This document shows positions 8,774 through 12,524 of a DNA stretch of 26,645 nt, piece after piece (position 1 is the stretch's first letter; every line of letters starts with the position of its first letter). Origin of the DNA: a virus (taxonomy: Duplodnaviria; Caudoviricetes). The stretch is taken from the IMG/VR virus record IMGVR_UViG_3300035164_000153, positions 1 to 26,645 of that record, one strand, 5' to 3'. The notes beneath the pieces were generated by a model. That model made no database searches. It was not told the DNA's origin and was given only the letters and a program-made list of their open reading frames with translations. A program made the translations under genes and the position numbers.

Positions 8774-8935
8774 ATGGCGGCAAAGAAAAAAGGTAAAAAA
8801 GACGCTTGTTATCATAAAGTAAAAGCTCGCTACAGAGTTTTTCCAAGTGCTTATGCTTCAGGGGCTTTGGTTTCTTGCCGAAAAGTTGGAGCCGCAAACT
8901 GGGGAACCAAGTCTAAAAAGAAGGGTAGAGCATAA
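8774..8935 (+). CDS. Basic miniprotein 1 (53 aa; MAAKKKGKKDACYHKVKARYRVFPSAYASGALVSCRKVGAANWG...)
   Basis: ATG 8774 has TAAGGA upstream and is the in-frame internal start of track ORF 8708..8935. TAATG-coupled to the next gene. Confidence 0.8.
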   Translation: MAAKKKGKKDACYHKVKARYRVFPSAYASGALVSCRKVGAANWGTKSKKKGRA

Positions 8936-9144
8936 TGCCAAACAAAAGTAAAAGAACAACACTTAGTCGTTCGCAAAAAGAGTCTAACTATGCTCGAAAA
9001 ACTAATAAGAGCGATAAGTCAAGAGTCTTCAAACCATCAAAGAAAAATCCTTCTGGCTCACCACTTGGAAGATTTAGTATTTTAAATCAAGTTATTAGGG
9101 GTGTAGACAAATTAACAGGTCATAAAAGAAAGTATCCAAAATAA
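8935..9144 (+). CDS. Basic miniprotein 2 (69 aa)
   Basis: TAATG-coupled at both ends; Lys/Arg-rich. Confidence 0.75.
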   Translation: MPNKSKRTTLSRSQKESNYARKTNKSDKSRVFKPSKKNPSGSPLGRFSILNQVIRGVDKLTGHKRKYPK

Positions 9145-9272
9145 TGCCATTTAGTAAATATAGTCCAAAGCAAAAAAAATTAGCGAGAGTTGCACCACCA
9201 CGAAATAAAATCACTGGTGCAGACCTAAAAAAACTTCGTAAGAAGAAAACTACTAAAAAAAGGAGAAAGTAA
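9144..9272 (+). CDS. Basic miniprotein 3 (42 aa; MPFSKYSPKQKKLARVAPPRNKITGADLKKLRKKKTTKKRRK)
   Basis: Manual translation, below the track length cut-off. The start overlaps the previous stop (TAATG). Confidence 0.8.
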   Translation: MPFSKYSPKQKKLARVAPPRNKITGADLKKLRKKKTTKKRRK

Positions 9273-9404
9273 ATGCCTATAGTAATTGTCCCAAAAAGGA
9301 AATCTGATAGAAGCAGTGCCAAAAATAAAATGAAGAAAAAGGCAATGCCTAAGAAAAAGCCTATGATGAGGAAAAAGAAAACCATGAAGAAGAAGAGTTA
9401 CTAA
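9273..9404 (+). CDS. Basic miniprotein 4 (43 aa; MPIVIVPKRKSDRSSAKNKMKKKAMPKKKPMMRKKKTMKKKSY)
   Basis: Manual translation. AAGGAG RBS; ATG immediately follows the previous TAA. Confidence 0.8.
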   Translation: MPIVIVPKRKSDRSSAKNKMKKKAMPKKKPMMRKKKTMKKKSY

Positions 9405-9405
9405 A

Positions 9406-9558
9406 ATGCCAGGGGTAATGAAAAAGCCAGGCACGACGCAAAAGAAGTTTCCTTACACACAAGCTGGTATAATGGCGGCAAAGATGTACGCTAAGAAAAC
9501 TGGCGGCAAGCTAATCATGGAAGGCAAAGGTGGCTACGGCAAAAAGAAAAAGCGGTAG
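9406..9558 (+). CDS. Basic miniprotein 5 (50 aa; MPGVMKKPGTTQKKFPYTQAGIMAAKMYAKKTGGKLIMEGKGGYGKKKKR)
   Basis: Manual translation. ATG lies 1 nt after the previous stop and the ORF fills the gap. Confidence 0.78.
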   Translation: MPGVMKKPGTTQKKFPYTQAGIMAAKMYAKKTGGKLIMEGKGGYGKKKKR

Positions 9559-9754
9559 TGACGGCTTACGCAAATGGTTCTCTCGGAACAATGGCAAAGG
9601 TTGGATAGACTGCAAGACAGGAAAGCCCTGTGGTCGTAAGTCGGCAAAGGGTGGCTCAAAACGCCCGTACCCAGCTTGCAGACCGACGAAGGCTCAGTGC
9701 AACTCGGCGGCTAGAAAAAAGAAGGGACCAGCTAGAATTAGTTGGAAAAAATGA
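9530..9754 (+). CDS. Basic Cys-containing miniprotein 6 (74 aa)
   Basis: GTG start; GLRKWF...GWIDCKTGKPCGRK...RPYPACRP; ATGA overlap with the next gene. Confidence 0.75.
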   Translation: MATAKRKSGSDGLRKWFSRNNGKGWIDCKTGKPCGRKSAKGGSKRPYPACRPTKAQCNSAARKKKGPARISWKK

Positions 9755-10014
9755 ACAAAGTAGAACAAAAAAGAAAGGTACAAGATTTACTAAAATCTGA
9801 TGGTTGGGGTATAATCCAACAGAAGATGCAAGAAGAGATTTTATCTGCGGCTTATCAAATGGCAGAAAATAAAATGCTAACGATAGACGAGATAAATTTT
9901 AGACGAGGTGCAATGTTTGCGGCTCGTCGTTTGGTAGAGCTACCAAAGAACTTAGACATGTTGCTAGACAACGAAATACTTATGGAAAGTTCAGAGGTAG
10001 ACAAAAAACAATAG
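9751..10014 (+). CDS. Small helical protein of the type found between portal and scaffold genes
   Basis: ATGA coupling at 9751; LLKSDGWGIIQ...FRRGAMFAARRLVELP; position just before the scaffold gene. Confidence 0.65.
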   Translation: MNKVEQKRKVQDLLKSDGWGIIQQKMQEEILSAAYQMAENKMLTIDEINFRRGAMFAARRLVELPKNLDMLLDNEILMESSEVDKKQ

Positions 10015-10050
10015 GACGCTACGGCTTCCGCAACGTTCGCTACGGCTGAC
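10014..10050 (+). promoter_or_regulatory. Tandem C(UACG)G hairpins in the scaffold leader (putative RNA operator)
   Basis: GGA-C-GC-TACG-GC-T-TCC (10014-10029) and GTT-C-GC-TACG-GC-T-GAC (10035-10050), directly 5' of the AAGGAG RBS. Confidence 0.7.
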
Positions 10051-10063
10051 AAAGGAGTAAAAA

Positions 10064-11185
10064 ATGGCAGAACAATTAAATGAACAAGATAAGGCGATGA
10101 TTAACCAAATGGCTAGTCAACAGTTAGGAGATGCAAATGCTACGGCTCCAGCACCCCAAACGCCCCCACCTCAAGGTATGCCACCTCAAGGACAACCGCC
10201 TCAAGGTAAACCGCCAGAGCCAAAAGACGCACCCCCTACTGAAGTAGAGAAGGCTCAAGAAGCAGTTTCACCTACAACTGAAGCAGACAAATCTCTGGAC
10301 GAGAGTGTCTCGATGATAAAGGTAGATTTTGGAAACGGAGATGTTAGAGACTTATCTTCTAACCAAATCAAAGAAACCTTTAACAGATACAAAGACGCAA
10401 ACTATAAACTAATGCAGAACAAGCCAATGCAACCAGCACTGGATTATGTTCAAAGCATTATGGAAGGTGCAAGCAGAAATGGGCAGAATGTAACTGCGGA
10501 CGACGTAGTACAGTTTTTAAAATCTGCGGCACAAGCCGCTGTAAAAAACCCAACTATGGGAGCACAGAAAGACCCAACACCTGACAGACAAGGTACGCCA
10601 GTAACCAACATGGCTAATCTTGACAGTGAGTTCGAAAACCAAATCAAAAGATGGGAAGAAGAGAATGCAGTGTCTCTGCCACCTATGTTTAGAGAGGGTT
10701 TCAAAACAATACAAGCATTGCAACAAGACAATCAGAACATGAGAATGACTCTAAATCAATTCTTGGCTTCTGCTGGTCAGATAAATCAAGATGCGGCTAA
10801 AACTGCAATGCAATCAGAAACACAAGCTCAAGACGCTTATAGGCAGACTGCGGCAAACAATCTAAATCAGGCACAACAAAAATATCAGTTGCCAGATTCG
10901 GAGAGTGATGACTTCTTTACCTTTGCTTACGAGAGAGGTTTTACACAAGAAGATTTCATAGATGCTAGTCTGACAGATAAGGTCATGGGTGATTATGTTG
11001 CTGTAAAAGGCACACCAGAAATGGAAAGACTAAGGGATATGGCTAAACGACGAGTGGCATTTACAGGAAATATTAACGCTACTCCAGGTTCAGCGACTGC
11101 TGGCGGTCAACAAGCCCAAGACCCAAACATGGATTTTATAAACAAAGTAGCAGATGAGGCTATGAAAAAAAGAAATATGGCATAA
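10064..11185 (+). CDS. Putative capsid scaffolding protein
   Basis: Directly upstream of the capsid gene; acidic, Gln-rich, coiled-coil-like, with a Pro-rich N-terminus; strong RBS. Confidence 0.75.
   Translation: MAEQLNEQDKAMINQMASQQLGDANATAPAPQTPPPQGMPPQGQPPQGKPPEPKDAPPTEVEKAQEAVSPTTEADKSLDESVSMIKVDFGNGDVRDLSSNQIKETFNRYKDANYKLMQNKPMQPALDYVQSIMEGASRNGQNVTADDVVQFLKSAAQAAVKNPTMGAQKDPTPDRQGTPVTNMANLDSEFENQIKRWEEENAVSLPPMFREGFKTIQALQQDNQNMRMTLNQFLASAGQINQDAAKTAMQSETQAQDAYRQTAANNLNQAQQKYQLPDSESDDFFTFAYERGFTQEDFIDASLTDKVMGDYVAVKGTPEMERLRDMAKRRVAFTGNINATPGSATAGGQQAQDPNMDFINKVADEAMKKRNMA
10166..10216 (+). repeat. 15-bp coding tandem repeat (PPQGx, 3 copies)
   Basis: CCACCTCAAGGTATG / CCACCTCAAGGACAA / CCGCCTCAAGGTAAA. 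Confidence 0.8.
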
Positions 11186-11188
11186 TAG

Positions 11189-11219
11189 GGACGACTTAAC
11201 ATAAAAGTTGTTCTTTAAT
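11189..11219 (+). promoter_or_regulatory. GGACGAYT-type putative late promoter, copy 2 (capsid gene)
   Basis: GGACGACTTAA with TTTAAT 19 nt after GGACGA. Confidence 0.6.
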
Positions 11220-11227
11220 GAAGATAA

Positions 11228-11310
11228 CACGAGACGCTACGGCTTCAAAAATCGTGAACGGGTTTATCAAATGATTATGCTGAAAGCAGTTTGTTTGTGA
11301 GCACCCAGTT
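11228..11310 (+). promoter_or_regulatory. Structured 5' leader of the capsid gene, containing the third C(UACG)G hairpin
   Basis: CACGA/TCGTG stem (11228-11256) enclosing GA-C-GC-TACG-GC-T-TC, then a long imperfect hairpin 11257-11310 capped by TGC-TGAAA-GCA. Confidence 0.6.
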
Positions 11311-11345
11311 AGAAAAACGCAACTTTATCGCAAAAGGAGGTCAAT

Positions 11346-12524
11346 ATGACTGCGATTACAGGACTGCGTGGGACTGGGCAATTCGGTACAGAATTTCGTC
11401 CCACGAACTATAGAGAGCTATTCACTCTCTTAGAGCCTAACGGAACAGCACCTTTGCAAGCATTGCTTTCAATGGCTGGCTCCGAAAGCACAGACGACCC
11501 TAAGTACAATCACTTTAGGGACGAGCTTCCAAACAGAACTGTTACTGTTAATGGAGCGGTCGCATCAACATCAACAACATCAATTACGTTGGATAATGAT
11601 GACGACGAAGCATTTATTGTAGCTGGAACTATCTTACAAAACCAGACAACTGGTGAGATAATGAGAGCAACAGCAGATGCAAACTTATCTGCTAATACAA
11701 TAGCAGTTGAAAGAAACATTGGTGGCACATCTCACACCATTGCTGACAACGCTGTATTAATTATTGCTGGACATGCCGACCAGGAAGGTGGCACTAGTCC
11801 AACAGCTATCAGCTTCGACCCAACCACAGACTTTAACTTCACTCAGATTTTCAAAACTGCGGTGCAAGTCAGTGGAACTCTCCAGAACACATACTTGAGA
11901 ACTGGAGACAAAGAGCAAGAGCAACTTACAAAGGCACTCAAGTTACACATGGGTGACATTGAAAGAGCTATGTTCTTTGGTAAAAGGCACGAGGCAAACG
12001 GCTCAACAGCTAATCCGACAAGGTTTACTGGTGGTCTGTTAACACAGATTACTAACGTAACCGACGGAGCTTCTTTCGGTGCAAGTGCAAACACTATCAC
12101 TGAAAAAGAGTTCGACAGACTTTTGATTGAAACAATCTTTGCGTTTGGTTCATCAGAGAAGGTCGCATTCTGTGGTGCTAGGGTTATTTCTAACCTCATG
12201 GAGATTGGAAAGAACAGATGGCAACCAACACAAATCGACAACGCTTATGGAGTGTCACTCACAAGGTACACAACATATGCTGGCGACTTGTTGGTATACA
12301 TGCACCCAATGTTCAGGCAGACAGGTATGGACCAAGAGATGATTATCTTGGATATGGGCGAACTAAAGTTCAGATACCTACAGGGTAGAGATACTCAGCT
12401 TATCAGAGACATTCAGGCTCCTGATTTTGATGGTGTCAAGCACATGTATATGACAGAGTGCGGACTTGAGATGACTCAAGCAAAAGTACATCATAGAATC
12501 AAAGGCTGGCAAAAAGTCACATAA
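11346..12524 (+). CDS. Major capsid protein (resembles the SU10/DUF5309-type family)
   Basis: AAGGAGGT RBS, motifs NFTQIFKTAVQVSGT, LHMGDIERAMFFG, RFTGG and TECGLE, followed by a terminator. Confidence 0.9.
   Translation: MTAITGLRGTGQFGTEFRPTNYRELFTLLEPNGTAPLQALLSMAGSESTDDPKYNHFRDELPNRTVTVNGAVASTSTTSITLDNDDDEAFIVAGTILQNQTTGEIMRATADANLSANTIAVERNIGGTSHTIADNAVLIIAGHADQEGGTSPTAISFDPTTDFNFTQIFKTAVQVSGTLQNTYLRTGDKEQEQLTKALKLHMGDIERAMFFGKRHEANGSTANPTRFTGGLLTQITNVTDGASFGASANTITEKEFDRLLIETIFAFGSSEKVAFCGARVISNLMEIGKNRWQPTQIDNAYGVSLTRYTTYAGDLLVYMHPMFRQTGMDQEMIILDMGELKFRYLQGRDTQLIRDIQAPDFDGVKHMYMTECGLEMTQAKVHHRIKGWQKVT

Follow-up and report, generated by a model that had tools for sequence, protein, structure and literature searches.

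A mismatch-bearing RNA hairpin in the scaffold and capsid gene leaders of CRP-810-type phages, a candidate translational operator

Marine phages related to the Roseobacter phage CRP-810 carry a small RNA hairpin in front of two head genes, those for the scaffold and the major capsid protein (MCP). We analysed it in a stretch of 26,645 nucleotides (nt) from a tailed virus (IMG/VR record IMGVR_UViG_3300035164_000153, positions 1 to 26,645; the window), where an earlier note had noticed three copies and proposed a translational operator system. The hairpin is a real cis RNA element of CRP-810-type phages that is absent from Rfam, and its conserved feature is a mismatch with flanking G-C/C-G pairs, not the UACG sequence of its loop in the window. 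Judged by comparison of sequences, it is probably a protein-bound operator. Its likely function across the family, which we rate at about even, would be that of a translational operator read by free scaffold on the head-gene leaders.

The motif CGCTACGGCT occurs exactly at positions 10017, 10038 and 11235, always on the + strand (Table 1). With one mismatch allowed there were four matches against 0.59 expected, a number reached by none of 100 shuffled sequences, and each copy folded alone gave the stem, the C-U mismatch, the G-C/C-G pairs and the UACG loop; the positions and stems of the earlier note are thereby confirmed. The fourth near-match, at 10138, lies inside the scaffold open reading frame (ORF), has no lower stem and is not conserved. 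Two copies had been said to abut the ribosome-binding site (RBS) of the scaffold gene; copy 2 does, ending one base before the Shine-Dalgarno (SD) site, whereas the stop codon of the upstream gene runs into copy 1. The comparison with Rfam that the note had called for (Rfam 15, cmscan) gave no match at E<=5 in the window, and the three matches at E 7-8 were unrelated, on the minus strand and none of them on the hairpins. None of the three copies was called as an intrinsic terminator on the + strand, and no U-tract follows them. Some of the region, with the hairpins, is spanned by metatranscriptome contigs from four seawater runs, which are uninformative on strand, start and level.

The homologous capsid protein and the gene order place the window among the CRP-810-type phages. 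CRP-810 is the closest cultured phage, with an MCP 62.7% identical to that of the window (next matches <=34%). The order small gene, scaffold, MCP is common to both (gp47-gp46-gp45 in CRP-810), and CRP-810 carries one hairpin copy at each of the scaffold and capsid genes. In five distant phages with an SU10-type MCP (25-34% MCP identity) the hairpin is absent, and the gap between the scaffold and MCP genes is 6-50 nt.

Conservation was measured in a first set of 80 related loci, in which leaders were counted only when enough sequence was present; the search pattern fixed the G-C/C-G pairs and not the mismatch bases. The core was found in 76/76 capsid leaders and 60/60 scaffold leaders, with a second upstream copy in 55 of the 60 scaffold leaders. 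The case for the G-C/C-G pairs as real is that every leader of the set matched the search pattern. The mismatch, whose bases the search did not impose, is pyrimidine-pyrimidine in all 85 per-class unique 20-mers; elsewhere in the same loci only 33 of 200 cores have a pyrimidine pair, and five of the background cases listed are leader copies that had been skipped. Among 84 distinct copies, pairing at the two positions below the mismatch holds in 82 and 81, and both partners are changed in 51 and 46 cells (cells being sequences, not events); the mismatch column is paired in none (0/84). The covariation score over these copies was 0.535; shuffles gave 0.117 and slid controls no more than 0.178. 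The covariation of the lower stem, first noticed between copies of one genome, is therefore borne out family-wide.

A wider set gave the same picture. In 185 of 204 unique capsid leaders the strict core lies upstream by more than 85 nt; when the other 19 were read by eye, six had a canonical copy closer in, 11 kept the mismatch core with another loop (UAAC, UUAC, UCGC, UCAC, ACAA, AAUA, GAUA or longer), and two, from loci L442 and L447, had no hairpin. A relaxed pattern gave 202/204, which we do not count as evidence, as this pattern often matches by chance. Among 163 unique scaffold leaders the core lies 24-34 nt before the AUG in 153, all with a C-U (86) or C-C (67) mismatch that is never paired (0/153). 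The remaining leaders have the core further up behind an insertion (four), a mis-called start (one) or no core (five). Two other kinds of match were set aside: copies at MCP +1550 in L062-65 are coding, have weak or no stems and are not conserved, and a 5-7-bp hairpin with a GCAA loop and a pyrimidine mismatch, about 495 nt before the MCP gene within the scaffold ORF of one lineage (L019 and L022-L024), is probably due to chance.

The loop and the C-U mismatch, which had been taken as invariant, both vary across the family; what held is the pyrimidine mismatch with its G-C/C-G pairs. Loops are mostly of the YNMG type closed by a C-G pair, with UACG, CAAG, UAAG, UUCG, CACG and CGAG dominating and GNRA, YNUG and others as exceptions. 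One nested clade has switched both sites to GNRA loops (GAAA and GCAA); a pattern search for further GNRA lineages, covering 4 of 64 parts, gave no family match among 120 loci. Several features favour RNA of the + strand over DNA or a coding repeat. Wobble pairs at the two positions below the mismatch are of the G-U type in five cases and A-C in one, and the loops form the known RNA set only on this strand. In some relatives the upstream ORF encloses copy 1, and it does so in two different reading frames.

The hairpin is weakened because the mismatch sits under two G-C pairs. Predicted energies of the isolated hairpins are -5.1 kcal/mol for copy 1 and -2.9 kcal/mol for copy 2, and by predicted energies the hairpins are not extra-stable as cUNCGg/YNMG hairpins are. 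Median in-context probabilities are 0.35 on scaffold leaders (79 leaders) and 0.54 on MCP leaders (96 leaders), and this marginal folding implies that selection keeps a destabilising feature. A destabilising mismatch that is kept while the stem varies freely has, we infer, the look of a binding site read by its shape.

On the scaffold gene the element is placed as an operator would be. A conserved RNA structure stands beside the RBS in 153 of 163 leaders, and in most leaders the last copy ends 0-2 nt before the SD. In one lineage (L044, L045, L049, L050 and L054), an inserted ORF of 12-47 codons takes over the hairpin-adjacent SD, with its AUG at +24/+26, so that the spacing to an SD is kept; the mini-ORF extends into a further hairpin, a new one, in which the scaffold SD is hidden. 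The overlap of inserted ORF and this GCUCC/GGAGC hairpin is seen at L044:2639-2719, L049:2570-2730 and L054:2586-2726; the pair is likely a translational-coupling device that would pass control to the scaffold. Six genomes are near-complete (G001, G006 up to base 59,800 of 60,205, G007, G008, G009 and CRP-810), and of their 17 non-coding stemmed copies 15 lie in scaffold and capsid leaders; the remaining two, with stems of 2 bp, are not shared between genomes. The other GGACGAC promoters of these genomes have no hairpin. Because the copies concentrate in two leaders and the other late promoters lack them, the regulon appears to consist of two genes.

The capsid gene shows no such RBS-adjacent placement. 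Its copy lies about 100 nt before the AUG in the window and 101-159 nt before it in 96 leaders, and the wider set has six shorter leaders. It has no predicted pairing with the RBS, the median long-range pairing in the 96 leaders being 0, and a direct switch between the stem P1, which it caps, and the MCP RBS was not predicted in folds. Given this distance and the lack of predicted RBS pairing, the models argue that the capsid copy blocks no ribosome directly and cannot be a simple ribosome-blocking operator. The position given to it by the earlier note, at the predicted 5' end of the capsid transcript, agrees with our result, as it caps P1 just after the predicted start. The proposal that the hairpins form a translational operator balancing scaffold and capsid synthesis is thus partly supported: the hairpins are covarying, leader-confined and, on the scaffold gene, placed like an operator, whereas the capsid copy lies too far from its RBS to block it.

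The promoter-like motif in front of the capsid copy, GGACGA(C) with a -10-like hexamer about 17-19 nt later, occurs family-wide, often right after the stop codons of late genes. It was found in the window at 790, 4898, 11189, 12525 and 25024, and in the CRP-810 locus (L081) at 111, 2709, 4910, 13466, 15102, 16445 and 26414. The motif suggests that a phage factor alters how the -35 is recognised. A gene for a LuxR-type helix-turn-helix protein is present in five of the six genomes, and its link to the motif is conjectural. In many relatives (L005, L009, L016, L028 and others), a terminator-like hairpin directly follows the scaffold stop and has the GGACGAC box in its 5' arm, and there one stretch may both terminate the scaffold message and begin that of the capsid gene; the window has no such hairpin around the box. 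Some relatives have extra DNA between the scaffold stop and the MCP start (432 nt in L457 and L467; 760-820 nt in L544 and L566), and there the unit of promoter and hairpin has remained with the capsid gene. L005 shows a circularly permuted copy at the start codon of the MCP gene, which is not conserved.

Downstream of P1, the capsid leader contains a second stem (P2), a single-stranded ACG-N-AAC box and a hairpin (P3) at the start codon, which may be separate control elements. P2 has a GUGA..CC loop in other subgroups instead of the C-UG loop. The local pairing of P3 is 0.60, compared to 0.32 in shuffles, and is higher than in shuffles in 74% of 96 leaders.

The explanation we favour can be set out in steps. 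A protein would read the shape of the pyrimidine mismatch under the two fixed G-C pairs and stabilise the weak hairpin; bound 11-14 nt before the AUG, it would hinder loading of the 30S subunit on the scaffold message. The reader would be the scaffold, probably through a helix with R108 and N113, and it would leave the RNA when drawn into procapsids, as in P22 autoregulation. The capsid copy would soak up free scaffold in proportion to the capsid mRNA or protect that mRNA, and this role as decoy or 5'-end shield is the weakest step. In a bolder form, which we put forward tentatively and hold to be a minority possibility, the scaffold would be a shape-specific RNA-binder with a two-gene regulon and opposite outputs, switching its own translation off and stabilising or tethering the capsid mRNA. 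If this were true, one hairpin would set the scaffold-to-capsid ratio, and, as an alternative to stabilisation, scaffold would be tethered where new capsid protein emerges. The question is directly testable, as the family offers a 16-nt RNA target, a candidate helix, the cultured phage CRP-810 and natural variants (loop swaps, one or two copies, an inserted leader ORF and a lineage without the hairpin).

The chance that the scaffold is the reader is, from the sequence comparisons, about equal to the chance that it is not, and the main support is one lineage. L442 and L447 form the only lineage that lacks both hairpins. Among 196 full scaffolds, R108 and N113 are missing from that of L442 alone and kept by the other 195; the L442 scaffold breaks 3/16 near-invariant scaffold columns, the most of the 196, and no near-invariant column is broken in its MCP (0/113) or its 87-amino acid (aa) protein (0/6). 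The same changed helix is found in P0014, a protein sequence, with no DNA, from a separate assembly; the L447 sequence lacks the R108/N113 part of the scaffold gene. L442, L447 and P0014 are the only members of the lineage found. The capsid leader of L442 and L447 is longer and has two copies of a different module, GAGC..AAGACGAUGG..CCGU..GCUC, similar to a duplicated P2; the lineage may have switched its target rather than lost control. In the structural model, R108 and N113 lie in a helix together with Q101 and Y109, and scaffold residues 84-119 are a candidate RNA-contact module. In L467/468, the scaffold copy is lost, the capsid loop is changed and Q101 of the same helix is altered.

Several observations weigh against the scaffold as reader and against repression as the outcome. 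The co-loss in L442 is one lineage and one event, found post hoc, which moves the odds and does not settle the matter. L214, L457 and L531 lost the scaffold copy without such a helix change and, like L467/468, keep R108/N113 and a capsid copy. Structure and profile searches recognised no RNA-binding fold in the scaffold, and R108/N113 could serve assembly. Scaffold R291 was considered as a determinant, since it is changed in the GNRA clade, and was rejected, as it is also changed in L508, L512, L588 and L596, which have canonical hairpins. Faster scaffold evolution in the GNRA clade was suggested by a binned comparison and was not specific in a rate test, all three proteins being faster (0.39 versus 0.50 for the scaffold, 0.49 versus 0.61 for the 87-aa protein and 0.76 versus 0.80 for the MCP). 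The swap need not imply a changed reader, because GNRA and UNCG loops can share a fold (PMC5311481). The capsid promoter and start site are predictions. Finally, the lowest-energy fold of the window omits copy 2 and pairs its bases with the start codon, so that a bound protein could, on this model, also activate scaffold translation.

A protein-bound operator with another reader is unlikely, though it is the best of the alternatives; that reader could be the 87-aa protein, capsid protein outside assembled heads, a further core protein of the phage or an RNA-binding protein conserved among hosts. All the evidence on the RNA side fits any reader. The 87-aa gene stands beside the scaffold in 128/128 loci with enough upstream DNA and its product bears an R-G motif, and several other small core proteins are common to the six genomes. 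Against this, the 87-aa protein and the MCP are intact in L442, where the scaffold is changed, and small proteins of similar size and position, alike by eye only, are also found in distant phages without the hairpin. The prophage-like loci span alpha-, beta- and gammaproteobacterial records, so that very wide conservation would be required of a host reader. The basic miniproteins encoded upstream, which the earlier note had also named as possible ligands together with free scaffold and the 87-aa protein, are poor candidates. The best of these ORFs in the window had homologues in 31/102 eligible loci, and seven lineages that keep the hairpins (L016, L030, L040, L044, L076, L210 and L211) have no basic miniprotein upstream; a search for miniproteins in five records, run without a positive control, found none.

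A role without any specific protein, in which the hairpin, free of ligand, would stabilise the 5' end or enhance translation of two head genes with high expression, comes next and is likewise improbable. It would suit the MCP copy at the predicted 5' end and the extra-stable types of the loops, and a GGACGA motif 50-115 nt upstream of 71/196 scaffold genes would put the hairpin near a 5' end there too. However, neither a mismatch that never closes nor fixed G-C/C-G pairs above a freely varying stem is expected of a stabiliser, other late promoters do without the hairpin, and stability requires neither tandem copies nor a fixed SD spacing after ORF insertion.

It is very unlikely that the hairpin acts in transcription or on DNA, as a put-like antiterminator, part of a terminator or a single-stranded DNA hairpin signal. 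In HK022, the put antiterminator is made of stem-loops in tandem that closely follow the promoters of long operons. Hairpins in tandem are also found here, and the MCP copy follows a promoter that is often inside a terminator-like hairpin, but that copy is single and there is none behind the other GGACGAC promoters. In addition, the spacing of the scaffold copy is tied to the SD and AUG and not to a promoter, no U-tract is present on the + strand, and the wobble pairs and loop set favour + strand RNA. Chance or a coding repeat (Ala-Thr-Ala) has practically no probability left: GCTACGGCY tandems are common in coding repeats, and of the 121 loci found when 20 of 64 parts of the viral contigs were scanned for tandems 103 were unrelated, but all 16 loci with both stems >=3 bp precede a scaffold homologue. 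The scan, the leader conservation and the covariation refute it, and the two reading frames of copy 1 also speak against it.

Gene 8 of P22 is reportedly under autogenous post-transcriptional control, in work attributed to Casjens and Adams and to Wyckoff and Casjens, both of 1985. To our knowledge, the matching of scaffold to capsid in tailed phages is understood mainly from the P22 genetics of the 1980s, in which no RNA-protein complex was defined. Autogenous regulation of the P22 scaffold is also stated in PMC5529062. The hairpin would work most like this system: both concern a podophage scaffold gene, with feedback by unassembled scaffold that is shown in P22 and proposed here. Unlike P22 gene 8, the CRP-810-type leader has a compact covarying RNA motif that is also present in the capsid leader, and a link to P22 in sequence was neither tested for nor found. 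The coat operator of MS2/R17 is a hairpin with a bulged A in which the SD and AUG are buried. It is similarly a small hairpin with an unpaired feature, and its reader in MS2 is a structural protein; in phages of the CRP-810 type the SD lies outside the stem, the unpaired feature is a pyrimidine mismatch, and the mRNA is that of a double-stranded DNA phage.

The hairpin has, by analogy, the geometry of the gp43 operator of T4/RB69, a 16-18-nt hairpin with a conserved top upstream of the RBS that is bound by the gene's own product when idle (PMC3014915). In contrast, gp43 reads the loop sequence about 40 nt before the AUG (PMC3014915), whereas here YNMG, GNRA and other loops are tolerated, the mismatch is fixed, the distance is 24-34 nt and a second gene has a copy. 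The element is not filed as a member of the P22 or T4 type because the capsid copy lies away from the RBS, binding and repression being proposals. YNMG/YNUG loops are defined in PMC5633025, and domain d of the enterovirus oriL carries such a hairpin. As in the cUNCGg/YNMG hairpins, C-G-closed YNMG and YNUG loops swap freely, sometimes with GNRA (PMC5633025, PMC5311481), which points to shape rather than sequence; unlike them, the loop here sits on two pairs above a fixed mismatch, which makes the hairpin weak, and it stands in the leaders of head-gene mRNAs.

Fremin et al. 2023 (PMC10690425) similarly describe cis elements that stand uncharacterised in front of capsid and scaffold genes. DNAVirus_5306, which is marine, precedes 'Phage-scaffold' genes, and DNAVirus_5700 precedes DUF5309 (SU10 MCP) genes. 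They differ from our element by description: DNAVirus_5700 is called a terminator and comes from engineered solid habitats, and the scaffold here has no match to the Phage-scaffold Pfam family of DNAVirus_5306. The hairpin may be among the 8,495 unnamed candidates of that study, the comparison with which was by description. Full-text literature searches gave no description of the hairpin motif among the matches listed, a preprint on phage L had nothing of relevance, and the main text of the CRP-810 family paper (PMC11288001) does not mention a scaffold, hairpin, promoter, riboswitch or sigma factor.

Profile searches identified the window as podophage late genes, with a terminase, an SU10-type portal and an SU10-type capsid protein. 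The 373-aa protein has no Pfam or PHROG family match and is called a scaffold because of its position before the MCP, its helical model and weak leads to scaffold proteins (0.88 in the atlas; Foldseek E 0.006-0.2); structure searches returned only weak viral matches and no solved relative. The 87-aa protein is modelled as three helices with a predicted local distance difference test (pLDDT) score of 92, and had no fold match at E<=0.001, only generic helical hairpins being returned.

Table 1. Features of the head-gene region of the window, with coordinates on the whole stretch.
Feature	Position	Strand	Remarks
87-aa helical protein gene	9751..10014	+	Directly upstream of scaffold; no known family; stop codon overlaps copy 1
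Hairpin copy 1, GGA-C-GC[UACG]GC-U-UCC	10014..10029	+	Overlaps stop codon of 87-aa gene
Hairpin copy 2, GUU-C-GC[UACG]GC-U-GAC	10035..10050	+	Abuts scaffold SD; candidate operator
Scaffold Shine-Dalgarno site and start codon	10052..10066	+	AAGGAG 10052-10057, ATG 10064; from sequence
Probable scaffolding protein gene, 373 aa	10064..11185	+	Position before MCP; candidate hairpin reader
Scaffold residues 84-119, predicted beta-hairpin and helix with Q101, R108, Y109, N113	10313..10420	+	Model, pLDDT ~70-80
Predicted phage late promoter, GGACGAC then -10-like hexamer TTTAAT	11189..11219	+	Predicted start ~11226; conserved before MCP hairpin
P1, predicted 5'-terminal stem of MCP leader, capped by copy 3	11228..11256	+	Core in 76/76 first-set leaders
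Hairpin copy 3, GA/TC lower stem	11233-11246	+	Sits atop a longer stem formed by 11228-11232 and 11252-11256
P2, second predicted irregular stem with apical C-UG... loop	11257..11312	+	Folds and alignment; new relative to earlier note
Conserved single-stranded ACG-N-AAC box before MCP SD	11317..11323	+	Alignment
P3, predicted hairpin pairing MCP start-codon region with bases upstream of SD	11328..11355	+	Local pairing
Major capsid protein gene, SU10 type	11346..12524	+	PF17236 E 7e-44; homologue of CRP-810 MCP

Upstream of the 87-aa gene, positions 8774-9754 encode six very basic miniproteins in a row, of 42-74 aa and with 14-20 lysine plus arginine residues each (five counted). Their number and kind differ between lineages, and they are absent at the locus in some. 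These miniproteins are possibly DNA-condensing proteins.

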